From positions 2,161,493 through 2,225,492 of the forward strand of contig OZ244254.1 of assembly GCA_965217205.1 (NCBI GenBank): a DNA stretch of 64,000 nucleotides. The letters are read 5' to 3'. Positions 2,611 through 48,869 of the stretch are shown piece by piece (position 1 is the first letter of the stretch; every line of letters starts with the position of its first letter). The stretch comes from an uncultured Maricaulis sp. GTDB taxonomy: Bacteria > Pseudomonadota > Alphaproteobacteria > Caulobacterales > Maricaulaceae. The notes under the pieces are model-generated. The model saw only the letters and a list, made by a program, of their open reading frames with translations, ran no database searches and was not told where the DNA came from. The translations under genes and the position numbers were made by a program.

Positions 2611-2728
2611 TTGTCATCCCTGACGGACGCCCGGCGCAGGCCGGGCGAAGATCAGGGACCTAGCTGGTCGAACACTTGGGTCCCCGCCTTGCGTCCGGCC
2701 TTCGCCGGACATCCAGCGGGGATGACAA
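2611..2728. repeat. REP-like palindromic doublet with TTGTCATCCC...GGGATGACAA ends (copy A)
   Basis: 10-bp terminal inverted repeat; internal hairpins gcccggc-gcag-gccgggc and gtccggc-cttc-gccggac. Confidence 0.85.
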
Positions 2729-2770
2729 GCTCGCAGACCGGGCGTTTATCCCCGCGATTACCACACGCAC

Positions 2771-2876
2771 CCGTCATCCTGACGCAAGTCAGGAACCAGT
2801 CTCGCAGGCCCGATTTGGCCAATCTTGGCAACAACTTGTGTCGCAATCTGGGTCCCGGCCTGCGCCGGGATGACGG
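2771..2876. repeat. CGTC-tagged REP-like doublet (copy A)
   Basis: ccgtcatcc...ggatgacgg ends; hairpins tcctgac-gcaa-gtcagga and tcccggc-ctgc-gccggga. Confidence 0.85.
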
Positions 2877-2933
2877 TGTGTGGGGCGAAAAACTTATCCC
2901 CACCCCCTCGGCGCCAGCGCATACTCCCCTTGT

Positions 2934-3227
2934 TCCCGCGTCACCTGAGGCCCGGATTGGTTATCCGGGGGCGTGGGGAGGACGGAGCTCGTCCGGTTGG
3001 GTGGATTTGACCACCATCCGACCCGGCGTGGCCATCGGCAGGACGGCGGCACAAAGCTCGACCGTTTGATCCTGTCGGTTTCGAGACGGGGCCGGTAACG
3101 GCCTTGAGTAAATCTCCGTGTGCGAGGTGCCCCCGGCGCCACCTACACAAATTCCATAGCAAGGCACCGGCAAGGCACCTCGCACCCCTCTACGGCCCAC
3201 ACCGCCAGGCGAAATCGTCATGGCGCG
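2934..3227 (-). ncRNA. Putative structured RNA/ssDNA core of the repeat element (copy A)
   Basis: About 95% identical to 46382-46677; multiple stems; compensatory substitutions between copies; G-U wobbles favour this strand. Confidence 0.6.
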
Positions 3228-3373
3228 AATGGGCGCGTCACCCTTTCCGTCAACAGATATGAGGTGAAGCCATGTCAGCTCGCCGCCCTGCCCGCGTTGG
3301 GGTTTTCCGATCTGGCGCTCACGCGCCTTTCAATCCGGGCGGGGCGGTTGCTGACTCAAGTCTGTGCTGAGCG

Positions 3374-3446
3374 GGGGACAGGTATAATTAACGCGCCGCC
3401 CGGTCGCGCCCGGCACATCCGAGGCGCGTTAATTATACCTGTCCCC
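3374..3446. repeat. Perfect 24-bp inverted repeat GGGGACAGGTATAATTAACGCGCC / GGCGCGTTAATTATACCTGTCCCC with a 25-nt loop (MITE-like empty TIR pair)
   Basis: Read directly from the sequence; the same arms recur at 46187-46258. Confidence 0.9.
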
Positions 3447-8927: not shown

Positions 8928-11219
8928 TCAAATCCCTCGTCCACTTTCAATGGCCTCGCGAGGCAATCCGGCATTTTCTCCCGCCTCGATGAGGAGGGGA
9001 CGCAGACTGTCCACGGGTTGTTGAAGGTGGTTCGCAAGCCAGGTGCCAAGTTTTCCAGCATCCAGTCCGGACACCAGTTTCTTGATCGGGCCGATATTGC
9101 CCGAGGCCATGGAAAGACTTTGATAACCAAGCCCGATCAGCACAGCAGCCTCCAGCGGCTTGGCGGCAATTTCACCACAAACAGAGATCGGCGTATCGTG
9201 TTTCGCACACAGATCGCGGACATGTTTGAGCAGGTCCAGGGCAGCCGGAGCGAGCACATCGTATCGTTCCGATACACGCGTATTCTGGCGATCTGCGGCG
9301 TAGAAATACTGCATCAGGTCATTCGCACCGACCGATACGAAATCGACGTCGTCGATCGCGTGCTGCAGCGCCCAGGCCATGCCCGGCGTTTCCAGCATGA
9401 TACCGCATCGCACGTCTGACGGCATTTCATGCCCGGCCTGACGGGCATGACGCAACTCGCGGTCGAGCATTTCACGCGCCGCTCGCGCCTCCCAGGGCGC
9501 GGCAATCATCGGAAACATGACGTTGAGCGGGCGCCCGGCCGCGGCCAGGATCAACGCGCGCAATTGGTAGCGAAGCAGGCCGGGGCGATCGAGGCCCATC
9601 CGGATCGCGCGCCAGCCCAGTGCCGGATTGGGCTCGATGGTCGATGGCGCGAACGGCGCGACCTTGTCACCGCCAAGATCGAGCGTGCGGAAAATGACCG
9701 GCTTGTCGCCCGCCGCATCCAGCACTGATTTGTAGACTGTGGCCTGGGCTGACAGCCGCGGCAGGGTCTCGGCGACCATGAATTGGAATTCGGTGCGAAA
9801 AAGGCCAACCCCGTCAGCGCCGGTTTCCTCCAGAGCGGTCAGCTCGATCAGGAGACCGGCATTCATGTGCAGGCCGATCCGCTGACCGTCAGCGGTGACT
9901 GACGGACCCCGCAATTCGGCATAGGACTGCCGCCGCTCGGACAAGGCCGCGACGCGGACTTCATAGGTCTCGACAACATCGGGCTGTGGCCGGATATGCA
10001 GGATACCGAACTCACCATCCAGGATCACCGGATCTCCGTTTTCCGCCCGGTCCAGCGCACCTTCGAGGCGCCCAACAAGGGGAATGCCCAGCGCCTTGGC
10101 GACGATGGCCGCGTGGGACGAGGCCGAGCCTTCTTCCAGGGCGATGCCCTTCAGCTTCGTACGGTCAAAATCGAGCAGTTCGGCCGGGCCGATATTGCGC
10201 GCGATGATGATCGCATTATCAGGCAATTCCAGCGCCGCCCCGCTGCCATCGAGATGACGCAAAAGTCGATTGGCCAGGTCCTCGAGATCATGCAGGCGCT
10301 CGCGGAAGAGCGGATCGGACGCCTTCATCAAGCGGGCCCGGTTCTCGTTCCGCACCCGTTCAACCGCGGCTTCCGCCGTCAGGCCGCGGCGGACGGCTTC
10401 AAGCAGGCGCTCCAGCCAACCGCGATCATGCGCGAACATGCGATAGGCTTGCAGCACATCACGGGTCGGGCCACCAAAGGGCACCCGTCCGCCTTCGAGC
10501 ATTTCGTCGATCGATGCGCGCAGCGAATTGATGGCCGCATCCAGACGCTCTTCCTCACGCGACGGATCGTCGGCGATCAGGCGGGTCGATTCAACATGTG
10601 GCTCGAACAGGACGGCAACGCCACTGGCCACCCCACCGGAATAGGCCCCGCCCTGGAAGCGTTCCGGACGCGACTGGCGCACATCCAGCCCCGCCATTTC
10701 CTCGGAATCGACAATGTCACCGGAGGCGACAATCTCGGCCAGAACCATGGCCACGGTTTGCAGAGTCTCGATCTCGTCCCCGGCGACCTGGCGCTCGACC
10801 GAGGTCTGGGCGGTGAGGACACCGACCATGCGGCCACCGCGCAGGATGGGCACCCCGACAAATGTGTCGAAGGGCTCCTCCCCGGTTTCCGGCTTGTAGG
10901 AGAAGGCCGCGTGGGCCCGCGCATTCGACGTTGCCAGCGGTCGCGCCCGACGTGCCACCAGGCCGACCAGGCCCTCGCCCGGTCGCAGGCGGACCGTGTG
11001 CACCGCCTCGCGCTTGAGGCCGAAGGTGGCACAAAGCTCCAGCGCATTGGACGGACGGGCGAGATAGATCGAGCAGACGTCCCAACCCGCCTCTTCCGCG
11101 ATCATGGCGGTGAGGTGATCAAGGCGCGCCTGGGCATTCTCCTGCACCGCCATGAGCTGGCGCATACGCTTGAGAAGGTTGCGCGGATCGCGAGCCGGTT
11201 TGGTCGTCATGTCTTCCAT
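8928..11219 (-). CDS. ptsP: Phosphoenolpyruvate-protein phosphotransferase EI(Ntr) with GAF domain
   Basis: N-terminal GAF, 'SHAAIVAKALGIP' phospho-His motif, 'GVGLFRTEF', 'RTLDLGGDK'. Confidence 0.95.
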   Translation of the reverse strand: MEDMTTKPARDPRNLLKRMRQLMAVQENAQARLDHLTAMIAEEAGWDVCSIYLARPSNALELCATFGLKREAVHTVRLRPGEGLVGLVARRARPLATSNARAHAAFSYKPETGEEPFDTFVGVPILRGGRMVGVLTAQTSVERQVAGDEIETLQTVAMVLAEIVASGDIVDSEEMAGLDVRQSRPERFQGGAYSGGVASGVAVLFEPHVESTRLIADDPSREEERLDAAINSLRASIDEMLEGGRVPFGGPTRDVLQAYRMFAHDRGWLERLLEAVRRGLTAEAAVERVRNENRARLMKASDPLFRERLHDLEDLANRLLRHLDGSGAALELPDNAIIIARNIGPAELLDFDRTKLKGIALEEGSASSHAAIVAKALGIPLVGRLEGALDRAENGDPVILDGEFGILHIRPQPDVVETYEVRVAALSERRQSYAELRGPSVTADGQRIGLHMNAGLLIELTALEETGADGVGLFRTEFQFMVAETLPRLSAQATVYKSVLDAAGDKPVIFRTLDLGGDKVAPFAPSTIEPNPALGWRAIRMGLDRPGLLRYQLRALILAAAGRPLNVMFPMIAAPWEARAAREMLDRELRHARQAGHEMPSDVRCGIMLETPGMAWALQHAIDDVDFVSVGANDLMQYFYAADRQNTRVSERYDVLAPAALDLLKHVRDLCAKHDTPISVCGEIAAKPLEAAVLIGLGYQSLSMASGNIGPIKKLVSGLDAGKLGTWLANHLQQPVDSLRPLLIEAGENAGLPREAIESGRGI

Positions 11220-44288: not shown

Positions 44289-46187
44289 ATGAGCCAACCG
44301 CCTGCCGATCCGGACGCGTTCAAGCGTGCCCTGTCCATCACCACCCGCGCCATTGCCGGCGACCGGGAGCTCGACGTGCGCTTTGGTGGCGAGATTGCCG
44401 GCCTGTCGGGCGGGCGCATGGTCCTGCCCAATCCCGGCAGTGAACCCTCGCCGGAGGCGGCAGCTGCCGTGCGCGGCCGGGCCGATGCCCTGGCCCTGCG
44501 CCTGGCCCATCATGACGAGGCCGCCCATGTCCGTGTCCTGCCGCCGGGCGCGACCGCACGCGCTATCTTCCATGCGGCCGAACAGGCCCGCGTCGAGGGT
44601 CTGGGCGCCCGGGACATGCGCGGTATGGCGGGCAATCTCGAAGCGGCCCTGGCCATGCGCTGCAAGCAGAAGGGCTGGCAGCGGGTCGAGGACCGGCAGT
44701 CTGCCCCGATGGAGGAGGCCCTCGCCCTTCTGGTCCGCGAACGCATCACCGGTCAGCCCTCCCCGCGCGAAGCGGATGGCCTGATGAATCTCTGGCGCGA
44801 CCAGATGGAAAGCGTGGCCGGCCTGTCGCTGGATGCCCTGGCCGAAAACGCCGACGACCAGACCGCCTTCGCCGATCTGTTGCGCACGGTCATCCAGGAT
44901 CTCGATCTCTCCGACGAACTCGGCGGCGATCCCGATCAATCGGAAAATCCCGAAGACGAGGATGAAGGCGTCGATCGCGAGGAACGCACCGGCGATGATG
45001 CCGAAGGCGACGACCAGCAGGGTGACCAGCCCGACACGCCTGATGCGGCCGGCACCGCCGGCGATGAAGACGAGATCAATGCCGACACGGATGATGCCGA
45101 GACCCGTGTCGATGCGATGGATGATGAGGGCGCCGCACAAACGGCCATGCGTCCGAACTGGCAGCCGGCCAATGATCCCGATGCCAAGTTCTACAAGGTC
45201 TTCACGCGCGAGTTCGACGAAATCATCCAGGCTTCCGATCTGTGCGAGCCGGACGAACTGGAACGCTTGCGCAAATATCTCGACAATACGCTGAAAGGCC
45301 TCGACCAGGTCGTCGGCCGCCTGGCCAACCGGCTGCAGCGCCGCCTGATGGCGCAGCAGGAACGGGCCTGGAATTTCGACCTCGAGGAAGGCGTGCTGGA
45401 CGGCTCCCGCCTCGCCCGTGTCATCGCCGACCCGACCCTGCCGCTCTCCTACAAGCAGGAGAGCGATACCGAATTCCGCGACACCATCGTCACCCTGGTG
45501 CTGGACAATTCCGGCTCCATGCGCGGTCGGCCGATCATGGTCGCAGCGGCCTGTGCCGACATCCTCGCCCGCACGCTGGAACGCTGCGGCGTGAAGACCG
45601 AGATTCTCGGCTTCACCACCAAGGCCTGGAAGGGCGGGCGCTCGAAGGAAAAATGGCTGGCCGAAGGCAAGCCGCCGCATCCGGGCCGGCTCAATGATCT
45701 GCGCCACATCATCTACAAGGCGGCCGACACACCCTGGCGCCGCGCCCGGGTCAATCTCGGCCTGATGATGCGCGAGGGCCTGTTGAAGGAAAATATCGAT
45801 GGCGAGGCCCTGATGTGGGCCTGGAAACGCATGGCCGCCCGCCCGGAACAGCGCCGCATCATGATGGTGATCTCGGACGGCGCCCCGGTCGATGACGGCA
45901 CCCAATCGGCCAATTCCGCCGGCTATCTGGAACGCCATCTGCGCGAAACCATCGCCATGATCGAAACCCGTTCGGAAGTCGAACTGCTCGCCATCGGCAT
46001 CGGCCATGACGTCACCCGCTGGTATCGCCGCGCGGTGACGATCAATGACGTCGAGCAACTCGGCGGCGCCATGACCGACCAGCTCGCCGCCCTGTTCGAG
46101 GAAGACGGCGGCAAGGGCACCGGCTTTTCCAGCGGTAAGCAGGGCATGAGCCGGACGGACTTCTCCTCAATCGCGGGGCGTGTTTAG
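44289..46187 (+). CDS. cobT: CobT (vWA-domain partner of CobS)
   Basis: Acidic linker, '[10 protein letters not shown]', '[12 protein letters not shown]', '[11 protein letters not shown]', 'ISDGAPVDD'. Confidence 0.95.
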
Positions 46188-46258
46188 GGGACAGGTATAA
46201 TTAACGCGCGGCTCGCACCGACCTGCGCCACGGCGACGCGTTAATTATACCTGTCCCC
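46187..46258. repeat. Perfect 22-bp inverted repeat GGGGACAGGTATAATTAACGCG / CGCGTTAATTATACCTGTCCCC with a 28-nt loop
   Basis: Same arms as 3374-3446, different loop; begins in the cobT stop codon. Confidence 0.9.
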
Positions 46259-46381
46259 CGTTCAGCGGCCGTCCCGCCCGCCTGGCGACGCAAGTGCGTC
46301 AGACAGGAATTGCCAGCGACGGGCGGGAAGGCGCGCCAGTGGGGCTCCTTTCCTGTGTTTGAAGTGATCGACAGGTTTGCC

Positions 46382-46677
46382 CGCGCCATGACGATTTCGC
46401 CTGGCGGTGTGGGCCGTAGAGGGGTGCGAGGTGCCTTGCCGGTGCCTTGCTATGGAATTTGTGTAGGTGGCGCCGGGGGCACCTCGCACACGGAGATTTA
46501 CTCAGGGCCGTTACCGGCCCCGTCTCGAAACCGATGGGAGAAAGCAGTCGAGCTTTGTGCTGCCGTCCCATCGATGGCCACGCCGGGTCGGGTGGTGGTC
46601 AACTCCACCAAACCGGACGAGCTCCGTCCTCCCCACGCCCCCGGATAACCAATCCGGGCCTCAGGTGACGCGGGAAC
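46382..46677 (+). ncRNA. Putative structured RNA/ssDNA core of the repeat element (copy B)
   Basis: Stems gtgcgaggtgcc/ggcacctcgcac, ccggtgcc/ggcgccgg, cgatggga/tcccatcg, tggtgg/ccacca, ggacg/cgtcc, cccggat/atccggg. Confidence 0.6.
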
Positions 46678-46732
46678 TGGAGGATTATGGGGCGGGCCGG
46701 ATGGGGTGCGGATAAGTTTTATGCCCCAAACA

Positions 46733-46838
46733 CCGTCATCCCGGCGCAGGCCGGGACCCAGCTTGCGATGCAAGTTGTTGCCGGGATTGGCGAAATCGGC
46801 CCTGCGAGACTGGGTCCTGACTTTCGTCAGGATGACGG
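46733..46838. repeat. CGTC-tagged REP-like doublet (copy B)
   Basis: ccgtcatcccggcgcaggccggga ... tcctgactttcgtcaggatgacgg. Confidence 0.85.
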
Positions 46839-46880
46839 GTGTGTGTGGTAATCGCGGGGATAAATGCCCGGTTTTCGAGC

Positions 46881-47000
46881 TTGTCATCCCGGCTAAATGT
46901 CCGGCGAAGTCCGGACGCAGGACGGGGACCTAACTCGTTGCAATCATATAGGTCCCTGCCTTTCGCCCCGCCTGCGCGGGGCGTCCATCAGGGATGACAA
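46881..47000. repeat. REP-like doublet with TTGTCATCCC...GGGATGACAA ends (copy B)
   Basis: 10-bp terminal inverted repeat plus internal hairpins homologous to 2611-2728. Confidence 0.85.
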
Positions 47001-47040
47001 AATCGCTGTGATACTGCGGGGTTTTCCCCCGGCCCGCACC

Positions 47041-47610
47041 CTAATTCCCGAAGCGATAGCCCAGGCGGATGCCGGCATTGTCGAGCGCCTGGTTGCGGCC
47101 GGAGGCGAGGATCTGGCCGTGCGAAATGTGCTCGTAATAAACGCCCACAGACCAGCGGTCATCGAGGTCGTAATCGAGGCCGATGGCGTTGTGGAAGAGG
47201 ATTTCATTGCCCATCAGCGCGCGCGTGGTCGCCAGGCGAATGCGCGTCGGGTCGCCCGGGGGCGAGTTGGGATCAATATCCTCGACACCGTCATTATAGG
47301 ACAGGCCGGAGCGGAATTCGAAATTGAGATTCTCGGCGACCTCGAAATCCCAGGCCAAACCCGTGCCACCGAAATTGGTCAGGCCATTCGTGTTGAAGGA
47401 GCCGTAGAGATAGGGGCGCGGCGACCAGATCGCGTCGAGAAAATCCGGTGAGGCAAAGAGCAGATCGACGGTGATGTTCGGGCCATCTTCGACATGATCG
47501 GCCAGATCATGCGCGGTCACACCGAGGCGGAATTCCATGCCACGATCATCGGCAAGACCGGCTCCGGTGAGCAGGGCAAAAGCGGCGGTGCTCGTCAGGA
47601 TATGTTTCAT
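47041..47610 (-). CDS. Outer-membrane acyloxyacyl hydrolase (lipid A deacylase PagL/LpxR-like family)
   Basis: Signal peptide; 'LDAIWSPRPYL', 'YEHISHG' catalytic-type H-x-S-H, 'NQALDNAGIRLGYRF' barrel end. Confidence 0.75.
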   Translation of the reverse strand: MKHILTSTAAFALLTGAGLADDRGMEFRLGVTAHDLADHVEDGPNITVDLLFASPDFLDAIWSPRPYLYGSFNTNGLTNFGGTGLAWDFEVAENLNFEFRSGLSYNDGVEDIDPNSPPGDPTRIRLATTRALMGNEILFHNAIGLDYDLDDRWSVGVYYEHISHGQILASGRNQALDNAGIRLGYRFGN

Positions 47611-47675
47611 GATGTCCCCTCGAGGTCGCACGCGCGACCGGTCTGTTGTCGGTAGCTCACGGGATAAAGCGTGTC

Positions 47676-48869
47676 TCAACCCGCGTCCAGCGCTTCGCGA
47701 TAGGCCCAGTCGAGCCAGGGACCGAGTGCGGCCAAATCATCACGCTCGACCGTCGGCCCGCACCAGATGCGGATACCCGGCACCGAGGCGCGATGCATAT
47801 TGATGTCGAGCGCGGCATTCTCGCGCTCCAGAAGCGATGAGATTTTCTTCGTCAGATCCCATTGGGCGTCCTCACCCGCCGCAATCACGGCCGGGTCGGT
47901 ATATTTCAAGGTCACCGAAACCGGCGAGCGGTGGTCCGGATTCTCGCACAGATAATCGATCCAGTCGGCCTGGTTGACCCAGGCGTCCAGGGCCGCGAAA
48001 TTCTCTTCGCGACGCCGGATGAGCTCCGGAAGGCCGCCAATGCGCGAGGCCCATTTCAGGGCGGCGAGATAGTCCTCAACCGCCATCAATGACGGCGTGT
48101 TGAGGGTCGAGCCCTCATAGATGCCCATATTGGCCTTGCCCTTGGCGTGCAGCTGCAACAGGCCCGGGATCGGCCAGTCCGGACGCCAGGTGTTGAGGCG
48201 CTCAATGGCGCGCGGGCTCATCACCAGCATGCCGTGCTGGGCTTCGCCGCCCATGCATTTCTGCCAGGAGAAGGTCAGCACATCGATCTTCGACCAGTCG
48301 ATCTCGACCGCGAAGGCGGCGGAGGTCGCATCACACAAGGTCAGCCCCTCACGATCGGCATCAATCCAGTCAAAGCCCGGAATCCAGACCCCGGCGGCCG
48401 TACCGTTCAGCGTGAAGATCGCATCGCGCTTGCCATCATACTGATCAATATCCGGCAGCACGCCTGGCTCGGTCTGGAAGACGCGAAGGTCTTGCAGCTT
48501 GAGCTCGTCGCGGGCGTCATAGGTCCAGCGATTGCCGAATACATCCCAGGAGAAAACATCGGTGCCGCGCTGGCCCAGGAGCGACCACATCGCCGCTTCC
48601 ATGGCGCCGGTATCCGAGCCCGGCATGAGGGCGACATGATAGCCCTCGGGCAATTCGAGCAGGGCATGGGTGCGTTCGATGGCTTCCTTGATCCGGGCGA
48701 CCGGCGCCCCGGCGCGGTGAGTGCGCGACAATGGCGCGTCGGCCAGCGCATCCCAGGACCAGCCCGGATATTTCTTCACCGGCCCGCAGGAAAAGCGCGG
48801 GTCGGCGGGACGCAGGACAGGCTTGGGATTATTGCTGCGGGTCGCGGTGGGCGTATCGGTATCAGCCAA
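47676..48869 (-). CDS. serC: Phosphoserine aminotransferase (alphaproteobacterial type)
   Basis: 'PRFSCGP', 'PGSDTGAME', 'DATSAAFA', 'FSWQK..GGE..HGM', 'RIWCGPTVE'; TTG start inferred. Confidence 0.88.
   Translation of the reverse strand: MADTDTPTATRSNNPKPVLRPADPRFSCGPVKKYPGWSWDALADAPLSRTHRAGAPVARIKEAIERTHALLELPEGYHVALMPGSDTGAMEAAMWSLLGQRGTDVFSWDVFGNRWTYDARDELKLQDLRVFQTEPGVLPDIDQYDGKRDAIFTLNGTAAGVWIPGFDWIDADREGLTLCDATSAAFAVEIDWSKIDVLTFSWQKCMGGEAQHGMLVMSPRAIERLNTWRPDWPIPGLLQLHAKGKANMGIYEGSTLNTPSLMAVEDYLAALKWASRIGGLPELIRRREENFAALDAWVNQADWIDYLCENPDHRSPVSVTLKYTDPAVIAAGEDAQWDLTKKISSLLERENAALDINMHRASVPGIRIWCGPTVERDDLAALGPWLDWAYREALDAG

Follow-up and report, generated by a model that had tools for sequence, protein, structure and literature searches.

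The window, a stretch of 64,000 nucleotides from an uncultured Maricaulis sp., contains two paralogues from a family of conserved non-coding RNA genes whose product folds into multiple helices and is abundant in seawater RNA libraries. The family has so far been seen only in the genus Maricaulis (Alphaproteobacteria, Caulobacterales). The two genes, here termed copy A and copy B, are inverted with respect to one another and share about 95% identity in their core. The reading tentatively favoured below, at somewhat less than an even chance, is that they belong to an independently expressed, trans-acting family of structured non-coding RNAs specific to Maricaulis.

Structure and conservation of the core

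A repeat search of the window returned a 552-nt inverted repeat, whose arms (2676-3227 and 46382-46933) lie 43 kb apart and are 91% complementary. Inverted RNA genes of such identity at this distance are a ready substrate for inversion of the segment between them. When both copies are compared in the same orientation, three zones can be distinguished. The 296-nt core is almost identical; on one side it is flanked by REP-like hairpins with ~90% identity between the copies, and on the other by a zone of weak similarity followed by a 72-nt perfect palindromic element.

An earlier note on this DNA counted about 14 substitutions between the two cores and assigned 10 of them to one stem-loop. Direct comparison within 46382-46677 gives exactly 14 (46505, 46535, 46536, 46540, 46541, 46544, 46546, 46561, 46569, 46570, 46571, 46592, 46603 and 46610), and ten do fall in a single stem-loop, all within 46535-46571. 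Its arms were read correctly, as CGATGGGA/TCCCATCG in copy B and CGACAGGA/TCCTGCCG in copy A, and the compensatory changes are real: both sides are altered at two outer pairs and one inner pair. Two further changes that appear as A.C on the strand chosen in that note are G.U pairs on the opposite strand.

The 86-codon ORF at 46388-46648 differs between the copies at 10 residues, again as had been reported. A small protein encoded by this plus-strand ORF, or by another frame, would fit the long ORFs that are open on both strands of the window copies and the frame that tblastn finds in close relatives. However, 10 of the 14 substitutions are non-synonymous, and core length, which ranges from 286 to 333 nt among 30 full-length members, falls in all three classes modulo 3 (0, 1 and 2 in 14, 8 and 8 sequences, respectively). 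No stop-free frame is common to all members of the family, many of which have stops in all six frames. As the reading frame is not preserved among homologues and the indels are not multiples of three, the coding reading is refuted and is given practically no credence.

The structure was derived with RNAalifold from an alignment (A4) of 34 sequences, 11 of them loci from Maricaulis genomes and the remainder from marine metagenomes. The consensus fold has 13 helices and 92 pairs. Standard pairs occupy 94.0% of cells, compared with 84.3% in column shuffles, and double changes are found at 45 of the 92 pairs (271 cells); no shuffle out of 500 matched the observed value on any measure. When partners were slid by 1-3 columns as a control, only 36-46% of cells were paired. 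The covariation first noticed in one hairpin, P6, therefore holds in the larger alignment and extends to 12 other helices. With 13 covarying helices and no frame open across the family, selection acts on secondary structure and not on protein, as the earlier note had argued, and its multi-branched RNA of roughly 300 nt stands as well, the proposed limits of 46382-46677 being nearly those of helices P1-P9 (46384-46679).

The predicted fold runs from a P1/P2 stem-loop, through a multi-helix junction formed by P3 and P4-P7, to the long P8 and the terminal P9 (Table 1). The anatomy of copy B is mirrored in copy A on the plus strand at 2889-3225, the 5' block included. The outer stem of P6 is hypervariable and occurs as at least four mutually compensated alleles (GAUGGGA, GGCAGGA, GGUUGGA and GGAGAGGA). 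The P6 differences between the two copies thus represent two internally compensated alleles of one strut and not ten recent mutations. The 9-nt apical loop of P6, ACAAAGCUC, is invariant and lies within the invariant stretch GCACAAAGCUCGAC, which is one of four single-stranded or junction segments that are invariant or nearly so, the others being CGGCGUGGCCAUC, UUUCGAGAC and AAAUCUCC. A search of the window for targets of the invariant loop gave nothing interpretable beyond chance. A pseudoknot between the C-rich 5' block and GUGGGGA on the 3' strand of P1 was considered and rejected; by inspection it pairs in copy A, but copy B, L003 and the M. salignorans group have lost the pairing with no compensating change.

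Table 1. Positions of the two RNA copies, their helices and associated features in the window
Feature	Position	Strand	Basis or remark
Copy B RNA, P1-P9	46384..46679	-	RNAalifold, pair counts, covariance model
Copy A RNA, P1-P9	2930..3225	+	inverted repeat comparison, covariance model
P1, encloses P2	46679-46667/46639-46628	-	alignment fold
P2	46658-46640	-	alignment fold
P3, closes junction bearing P4-P7	46627-46618 with 46527-46524 and 46495-46490	-	alignment fold
P4, hypervariable	46614-46586	-	alignment fold
P5, GGC-GUG-GCC, invariant	46584-46576	-	alignment fold
P6, hairpin singled out in the earlier note	46575-46530	-	covarying helices
P7, GNRA loop	46522-46503	-	alignment fold
P8, long hairpin	46489-46424	-	alignment fold
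P9, terminal hairpin	46406-46384	-	alignment fold
Copy B 5' block, conserved, unpaired, AAAACTTATCC(G/C)C(A/G)CCCC ... CATAAT	46682..46720	-	alignment A4
Copy A 5' block, AAAACTTATCCCCACCCC ... CATACT	2889..2927	+	motif scan, per-sequence listing
Copy B long-form 3' tail	46262..46383	-	paralogue comparison
Copy A 3' tail	3226..3350	+	paralogue comparison
REP-like hairpin array, units e.g. GTCATCCCGGCGCAGGCCGGGAC	46723..47000	.	upstream of copy B RNA on its strand
Mirror REP-like array	2611-2888		~90% identity to the 46723-47000 array

Homologues were collected in two ways. When one genome per species was scanned in translation, 11 loci came up, every one in a Maricaulis genome or metagenome-assembled genome (MAG), with at most three per MAG. 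A scan of metagenome contigs with exact patterns for two invariant blocks returned 36 loci; 25 of these are true homologues (64-93% identity), while the other 11 are chance matches and were discarded. A covariance model of the central domain scores all true copies at 93-162 bits, copy B at 159 and copy A at 153, and everything else at 18 bits or less. It separates homologues from all other sequence, and the window thus holds exactly two copies. In genome runs the depth of the core is ~4-8 times that of flanking single-copy DNA, corresponding to roughly 4-8 copies per genome. The most divergent homologues are those of Maricaulis salignorans, where the adjoining FabH-like gene is 99% identical to the protein of that species. 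At this locus, the one for which synteny was compared, no copy was found in M. maris, Hyphobacterium or a Maricaulaceae MAG. In one homologue, L038 (552-780), P5-P9 are normal but unrelated sequence stands in place of the 5' third, which comprises P1, P2 and part of P3/P4; even so, the central-domain model gives this chimera 93 bits.

Functional strand and presence in RNA libraries

The alignment as a whole identifies the functional strand as minus at copy B and plus at copy A, the reverse of the assignment made in the earlier note. On this strand G·U pairs outnumber A·C mismatches by 271 to 45. When helices were predicted on both strands independently, 96 cells read A.C on the plus strand (G.U on the minus), against 34 that read G.U on the plus. 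In the final structure 94.0% of cells are paired on the minus strand and 86.5% on the plus (copy B), and G.U occurs in 39 and 17 pairs, respectively. The loop of P7 on the minus strand is a GNRA tetraloop (GCAA, GUAA or GAAA) in all 34 sequences, the P9 loops on that strand include GAAA, GCAA and UUCG, and single-sequence folding gives z-scores of -5.1 for the minus strand and -3.8 for the plus. The wobble previously taken as strand evidence (ccggtgcc/ggcgccgg) carries no such information, since the position is unpaired or variable and changes from T to A without compensation in L006 and L007.

The core is present in many RNA-labelled runs. One study contributed four seawater metatranscriptomes in which the depth of core contigs is 81-127, compared with 3.5-7 for the contig joining P9 to the flank. 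The ratio of core to adjacent flank in marine metatranscriptomes is 10-36, as measured on contigs that are unstranded and whose ends are ambiguous. With no more than about eight copies per genome, DNA carry-over is unable to explain such ratios. Two runs labelled as transcriptomic, X27 and X28, were excluded as evidence of expression, as their contigs reach 130-175 kb; they cover the element at about the genomic copy ratio and are dominated by DNA. The suggestion that the element might be a single-stranded DNA scaffold finds no support, given its high depth in RNA libraries.

These observations bear on the possibility of a DNA-level repeat, of the REP/BIME or intergenic-mosaic kind, in which the hairpins would matter as DNA, either as protein binding sites or as single-stranded structures, and compensation would arise by template switching or gene conversion in palindromes. 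The flanks are indeed REP-like arrays and palindromes, and gene conversion between copies is evident. Nevertheless, the strand asymmetry of G.U over A.C and the strand-specific GNRA/UNCG loops are signatures of RNA, the 13 distinct helices include the long-range pairs of P1 and P3 and are not simple palindromes, and RNA libraries cover the core much more deeply than the flanks. A REP/BIME/MITE test found no short palindromic unit, terminal inverted repeats or duplications in the core, whereas the flanking units qualify. A DNA-level origin of the compensation is accordingly considered very improbable, and it and the coding reading are essentially excluded.

Contig ends from about five studies cluster at 46658-46666, which places them 11-20 nt inside the start that CATAAT predicts; a second cluster is at 46424-46447, within the 3' arm of P8 and at its end; as the ends of unstranded assembled contigs, both clusters may mark points of divergence between paralogues rather than RNA ends. 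A 324-nt contig from run X49 extends 108 nt beyond 46662, across the candidate promoter. In three RNA runs from two studies (X33, X49 and X59), odd contigs of 64-74 nt carry part of the P8 apex in two copies (46435-46476; L025 9701-9749), with a depth that is 15-40% that of the main RNA contig. Possible sources are self-priming of cDNA at an RNA end in P8, a duplication variant and an effect of assembly.

The family has a sharp conserved 5' boundary at AAAACTT(A/G)TCC. Ahead of P1 lies the conserved 5' block, which includes AACTTATCC and is promoter-like in having CATAAT as a -10-type hexamer. CATAAT occupies 46689-46684 in copy B, and the hexamer lies 5-7 nt ahead of the first base of P1. A -10-like hexamer (A2, T6) is found at a fixed distance ahead of P1 in 27 of 29 sequences, and the block motif, searched with 0 mismatches, matches the window at the two copies only. 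A consensus scan found no full sigma-70 promoter at either window copy, and no intrinsic terminator was found at either. A CTTATC-like hexamer was rejected as a -35 element, as its spacing of 21 nt from CATAAT is too long for a -35/-10 pair, and by-eye fits of the block to RpoH-type or ECF-type promoters or to a DnaA box were too poor to claim.

Genomic setting and proposed mode of action

The genes that lie downstream of the RNA and in the same orientation vary by locus, and include lepA, an S9 peptidase gene, a FabH-like gene and a small ORF found only in Maricaulis. At other loci the RNA faces a convergent cobT, LOG-family or PccB gene, or a tRNA. Since the downstream genes are heterogeneous and often convergent, the RNA does not appear to be dedicated to a gene in cis. 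At most loci the upstream gene is co-oriented and 300-600 nt away, so that read-through followed by processing is possible; at L001/L036 and L020/L029 it is divergent, and these copies therefore need their own promoter. Upstream of copy B on its strand is a gene for a PagL-like lipid A 3-O-deacylase/outer-membrane beta-barrel protein (47041-47679, minus; PF09411, E = 1.7e-07). In L022, a contig of the M. salignorans type, a tRNA gene (262-335; CAT anticodon by eye) lies on the opposite strand with its end ~20 nt from P9; it is the sole tRNA-adjacent copy seen.

Clustering of the flanking ORFs yields only groups of orthologous loci and no neighbour gene shared between them. The cobT-adjacent copy is common to the window (copy B), L002 and the divergent L013, and the LOG-adjacent copy to the window (copy A) and L019, whereas the FabH-adjacent copy is species-specific, being confined to contigs of the M. 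salignorans type. As several loci are orthologous across divergent species, the copies are old and stable. Their internal modules are less so: P4, P6 and P7 types occur in all combinations among paralogues. L015, a relative of the copy-B locus with 97% identity that is collinear on the copy-B side, carries a P6 of the copy-A type, which shows gene conversion between the two sites.

It is attractive to suppose that each copy is its own transcription unit, in which the -10-like CATAAT and an upstream C-rich recognition site of the 5' block would set the start at the base of P1. The transcript would end at P9, which is followed by AUUUU in M. salignorans-type copies, or else its end would result from trimming or processing near P8/P9. 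The RNA would act in trans, with its invariant loops presented by a compact tertiary fold to a conserved partner, either protein or nucleic acid. P4 and P6 would serve only as struts, able to diverge and, through gene conversion, to move between paralogues. Set against this proposal is the leader-like placement of a Shine-Dalgarno (SD) sequence and a start codon (MSRR...) directly after P9 in all long-form copies.

The long form is found in most Maricaulis copies, where homology runs ~120 nt past P9 and takes in an SD-like sequence, a start codon that opens MS(R/A)R, and a long hairpin. The tail of copy B has AAAGGAG, a decayed start (CTG, which is ATG in other copies) and a hairpin at ~46339-46262 with the inner stem GACGC-ACTT-GCGTC. 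That of copy A contains GAGGTGAAGCC, a 32-codon remnant ORF (MSARRPAR...) beginning with the ATG at 3272, and a matching long hairpin with compensated stems, GGCGC-TCAC-GCGCC. The conserved tail hairpin spans codons 2 to ~28 of the post-P9 ORF, and in 10 sequences double changes are seen in 11 of its 30 pairs. No alternative pairing with covariation, such as would sequester the SD sequence or form an expression platform, was found. Copies of the M. salignorans type lack tail, SD sequence and ATG, and they alone have a U-tract after P9.

At one orthologous locus the post-P9 ORF extends to 150-157 aa. This is the case in nine sequences (L003, L006, L007, L009, L017, L025, L031, L045 and L047), one of which, L009 from M. 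maris DSM 4734, has its frame broken by a frameshift. In L025, for example, the ORF occupies 9146-9617 on the minus strand, directly after the RNA, and its product begins MSRRLP.... The N-terminus of the protein is rich in arginine and its C-terminal part is charged and helical; the annotated start varies by database (102-173 aa). The protein has no match in Pfam, NCBIfam or PHROG and is confined to Maricaulis.

The RNA might instead be a cis-acting 5' leader, riboswitch-like or protein-binding, that controls translation or termination of the ORF beyond P9, with the orphan window copies as decayed duplicates of a leader-gene unit. All long-form Maricaulis copies have an SD sequence and ATG TCA/AGC CGT CGC (MSRR) 35-50 nt after P9, L045 showing a switch of the serine codon from TCA to AGC; the ORF runs into the conserved protein at the nine loci above, and elsewhere lepA, S9 peptidase and FabH-like genes are downstream and co-oriented. 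In addition, inspection of alignment A4 suggests that CUCG/CGAG segments could pair in two ways. However, no functional relationship links the downstream genes, many copies have a convergent gene or a tRNA downstream, and the consistent co-oriented position upstream of related genes that marks a riboswitch was not found. The 157-aa ORF is domain-less and occurs at a single orthologous locus in Maricaulis only, and the M. salignorans-type copies have AUUUU after P9 in place of an SD sequence and ATG. In run X58, moreover, the core has a depth of 21-54 while the small downstream ORF, of the 157-aa type, is at 0 and the next gene at 6. A leader function is therefore regarded as unlikely, though its probability is not negligible.

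Relation to known RNAs and repeats

Rfam 15 (4227 models) gave no matches at the gathering threshold in the whole window. At E values of up to 10, searches of 46100-47100 on both strands returned only noise (miRNA models at 25 bits or less), and those of five divergent homologue loci found only the neighbouring tRNA. Neither tRNA nor tmRNA, including the two-piece alphaproteobacterial form, was detected by ARAGORN or the Rfam models. A search of the literature found no description of the family. As it fails the defining tests of every family examined, the Maricaulis RNA would represent a new RNA family of a known general kind.

By comparison, its architecture is most like that of OLE, GOLLD, ROOL and the raiA motif. 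All are hundreds of nucleotides long, with many covarying helices, invariant junctions and loops, and GNRA tetraloops, and these RNAs at their discovery were likewise non-coding, of narrow phylogenetic range, highly expressed and without an assigned function. Unlike them, the Maricaulis RNA is smaller, at ~300 nt (~420 with the tail), and is found in ~4-8 dispersed copies per genome with exchange of modules. It is alphaproteobacterial, has no prophage link and is tRNA-adjacent only at L022; Rfam cmscan detects no match in sequence or structure. A previously unrecognised class of ornate RNA with a biochemical activity of its own, as a subunit of an RNP or as a ribozyme, with exchangeable copies in each genome, is conceivable but rather improbable. 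If it were a ribozyme, site-specific cleavage or processing in the internal loop of P8, at 46436-46440, would explain the coverage step at 46424-46447.

To our knowledge, large bacterial RNAs with many covarying helices are rare, and those studied so far (RNase P, OLE, GOLLD/ROOL, HEARO/omega RNA) have each revealed biochemistry that had not been expected. The Maricaulis RNA is well defined, with 13 helices, four conserved segments and a working covariance model, and as the genus is cultivable and has complete genomes, its function is directly testable. Paralogous RNA genes that swap modules and yet keep their pairing also provide a clean natural case for RNA evolution under gene conversion. 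The family has been seen in one genus so far, and its general importance may therefore be limited.

The genomic habit of the family resembles that of HEARO, the IscB omega RNA (RF02033), or of sibling sRNAs. HEARO is likewise a structured RNA of ~300 nt with a sharp 5' boundary, variable sequence upstream and an ORF start directly downstream; it too is present in multiple copies per genome, many of them ORF-less, as are the orphan copies of the window. In contrast to HEARO, the Maricaulis copies are positionally stable across species, give no RF02033 match and show no IS200/IS605 features, and the ORFs downstream (lepA, S9 peptidase, FabH-like and the domain-less 157-aa ORF) are never IscB (RuvC/HNH).

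The likeness invites the suggestion that the copies are the RNA, or else DNA relics, of a non-autonomous mobile or selfish element that would spread among intergenic sites, upheld by a factor encoded elsewhere in the genome, in the manner of ORF-less IscB-associated HEARO/omega RNA copies or of non-coding IS ends. Their multiplicity, the sharp AAAACTT(A/G)TCC boundary, species-specific loci such as the FabH-adjacent copy, a position among REP-like repeats and next to the 72-nt palindromic element, and the HEARO-like ORF start after the RNA would all be in keeping with such an origin. On the other hand, no HEARO or IS-associated Rfam match appears even at E values of up to 10, and no ORF for a transposase, IscB, TnpB or reverse transcriptase lies beside any of 36 copies. 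The ends carry no terminal inverted repeats or target duplications, several loci are orthologous between divergent species, and BLAST and pattern searches of plasmid, phage and viral collections found no match to the core. A selfish origin is thus doubtful.

AbcR1/2 and alpha-r14/NfeR1 are sibling sRNAs of 100-150 nt with two or three hairpins and anti-SD seeds, and are dependent on Hfq. They too are dispersed intergenic paralogues homogenised by recombination, with homology that runs from tens of nucleotides upstream of the predicted start to the terminal hairpin. The Maricaulis RNA differs in being two to three times larger, in having a multi-helix junction and in lacking an obvious seed.

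REP/BIME and RIME elements, finally, are also intergenic, repeated and tied to palindromic units, and the immediate flanks of copy B (46723-47000 and 46187-46258) are of this kind. The core differs as one unit of ~300 nt with long-range pairs and RNA-specific signatures, and it is about tenfold less numerous than the REP-like units next to it; in genome run X5 the REP-like array reaches 30-60 times the depth of the flank, compared with ~4-8 times for the core. The REP-like units are a separate and far more abundant repeat family. The 72-nt element, at 46187-46258 and 3374-3446, has perfect 22-bp inverted arms (GGGGACAGGTATAATTAACGCG ... CGCGTTAATTATACCTGTCCCC) and lies directly after the stop codons of cobT and the LOG-family gene, 4-25 nt past the ends of the RNA tails. 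Its appearance suggests a MITE or a terminator element of the REP type. Variants of it are present in L027 and in genome run X4, while L002 has a whole gene at that position.
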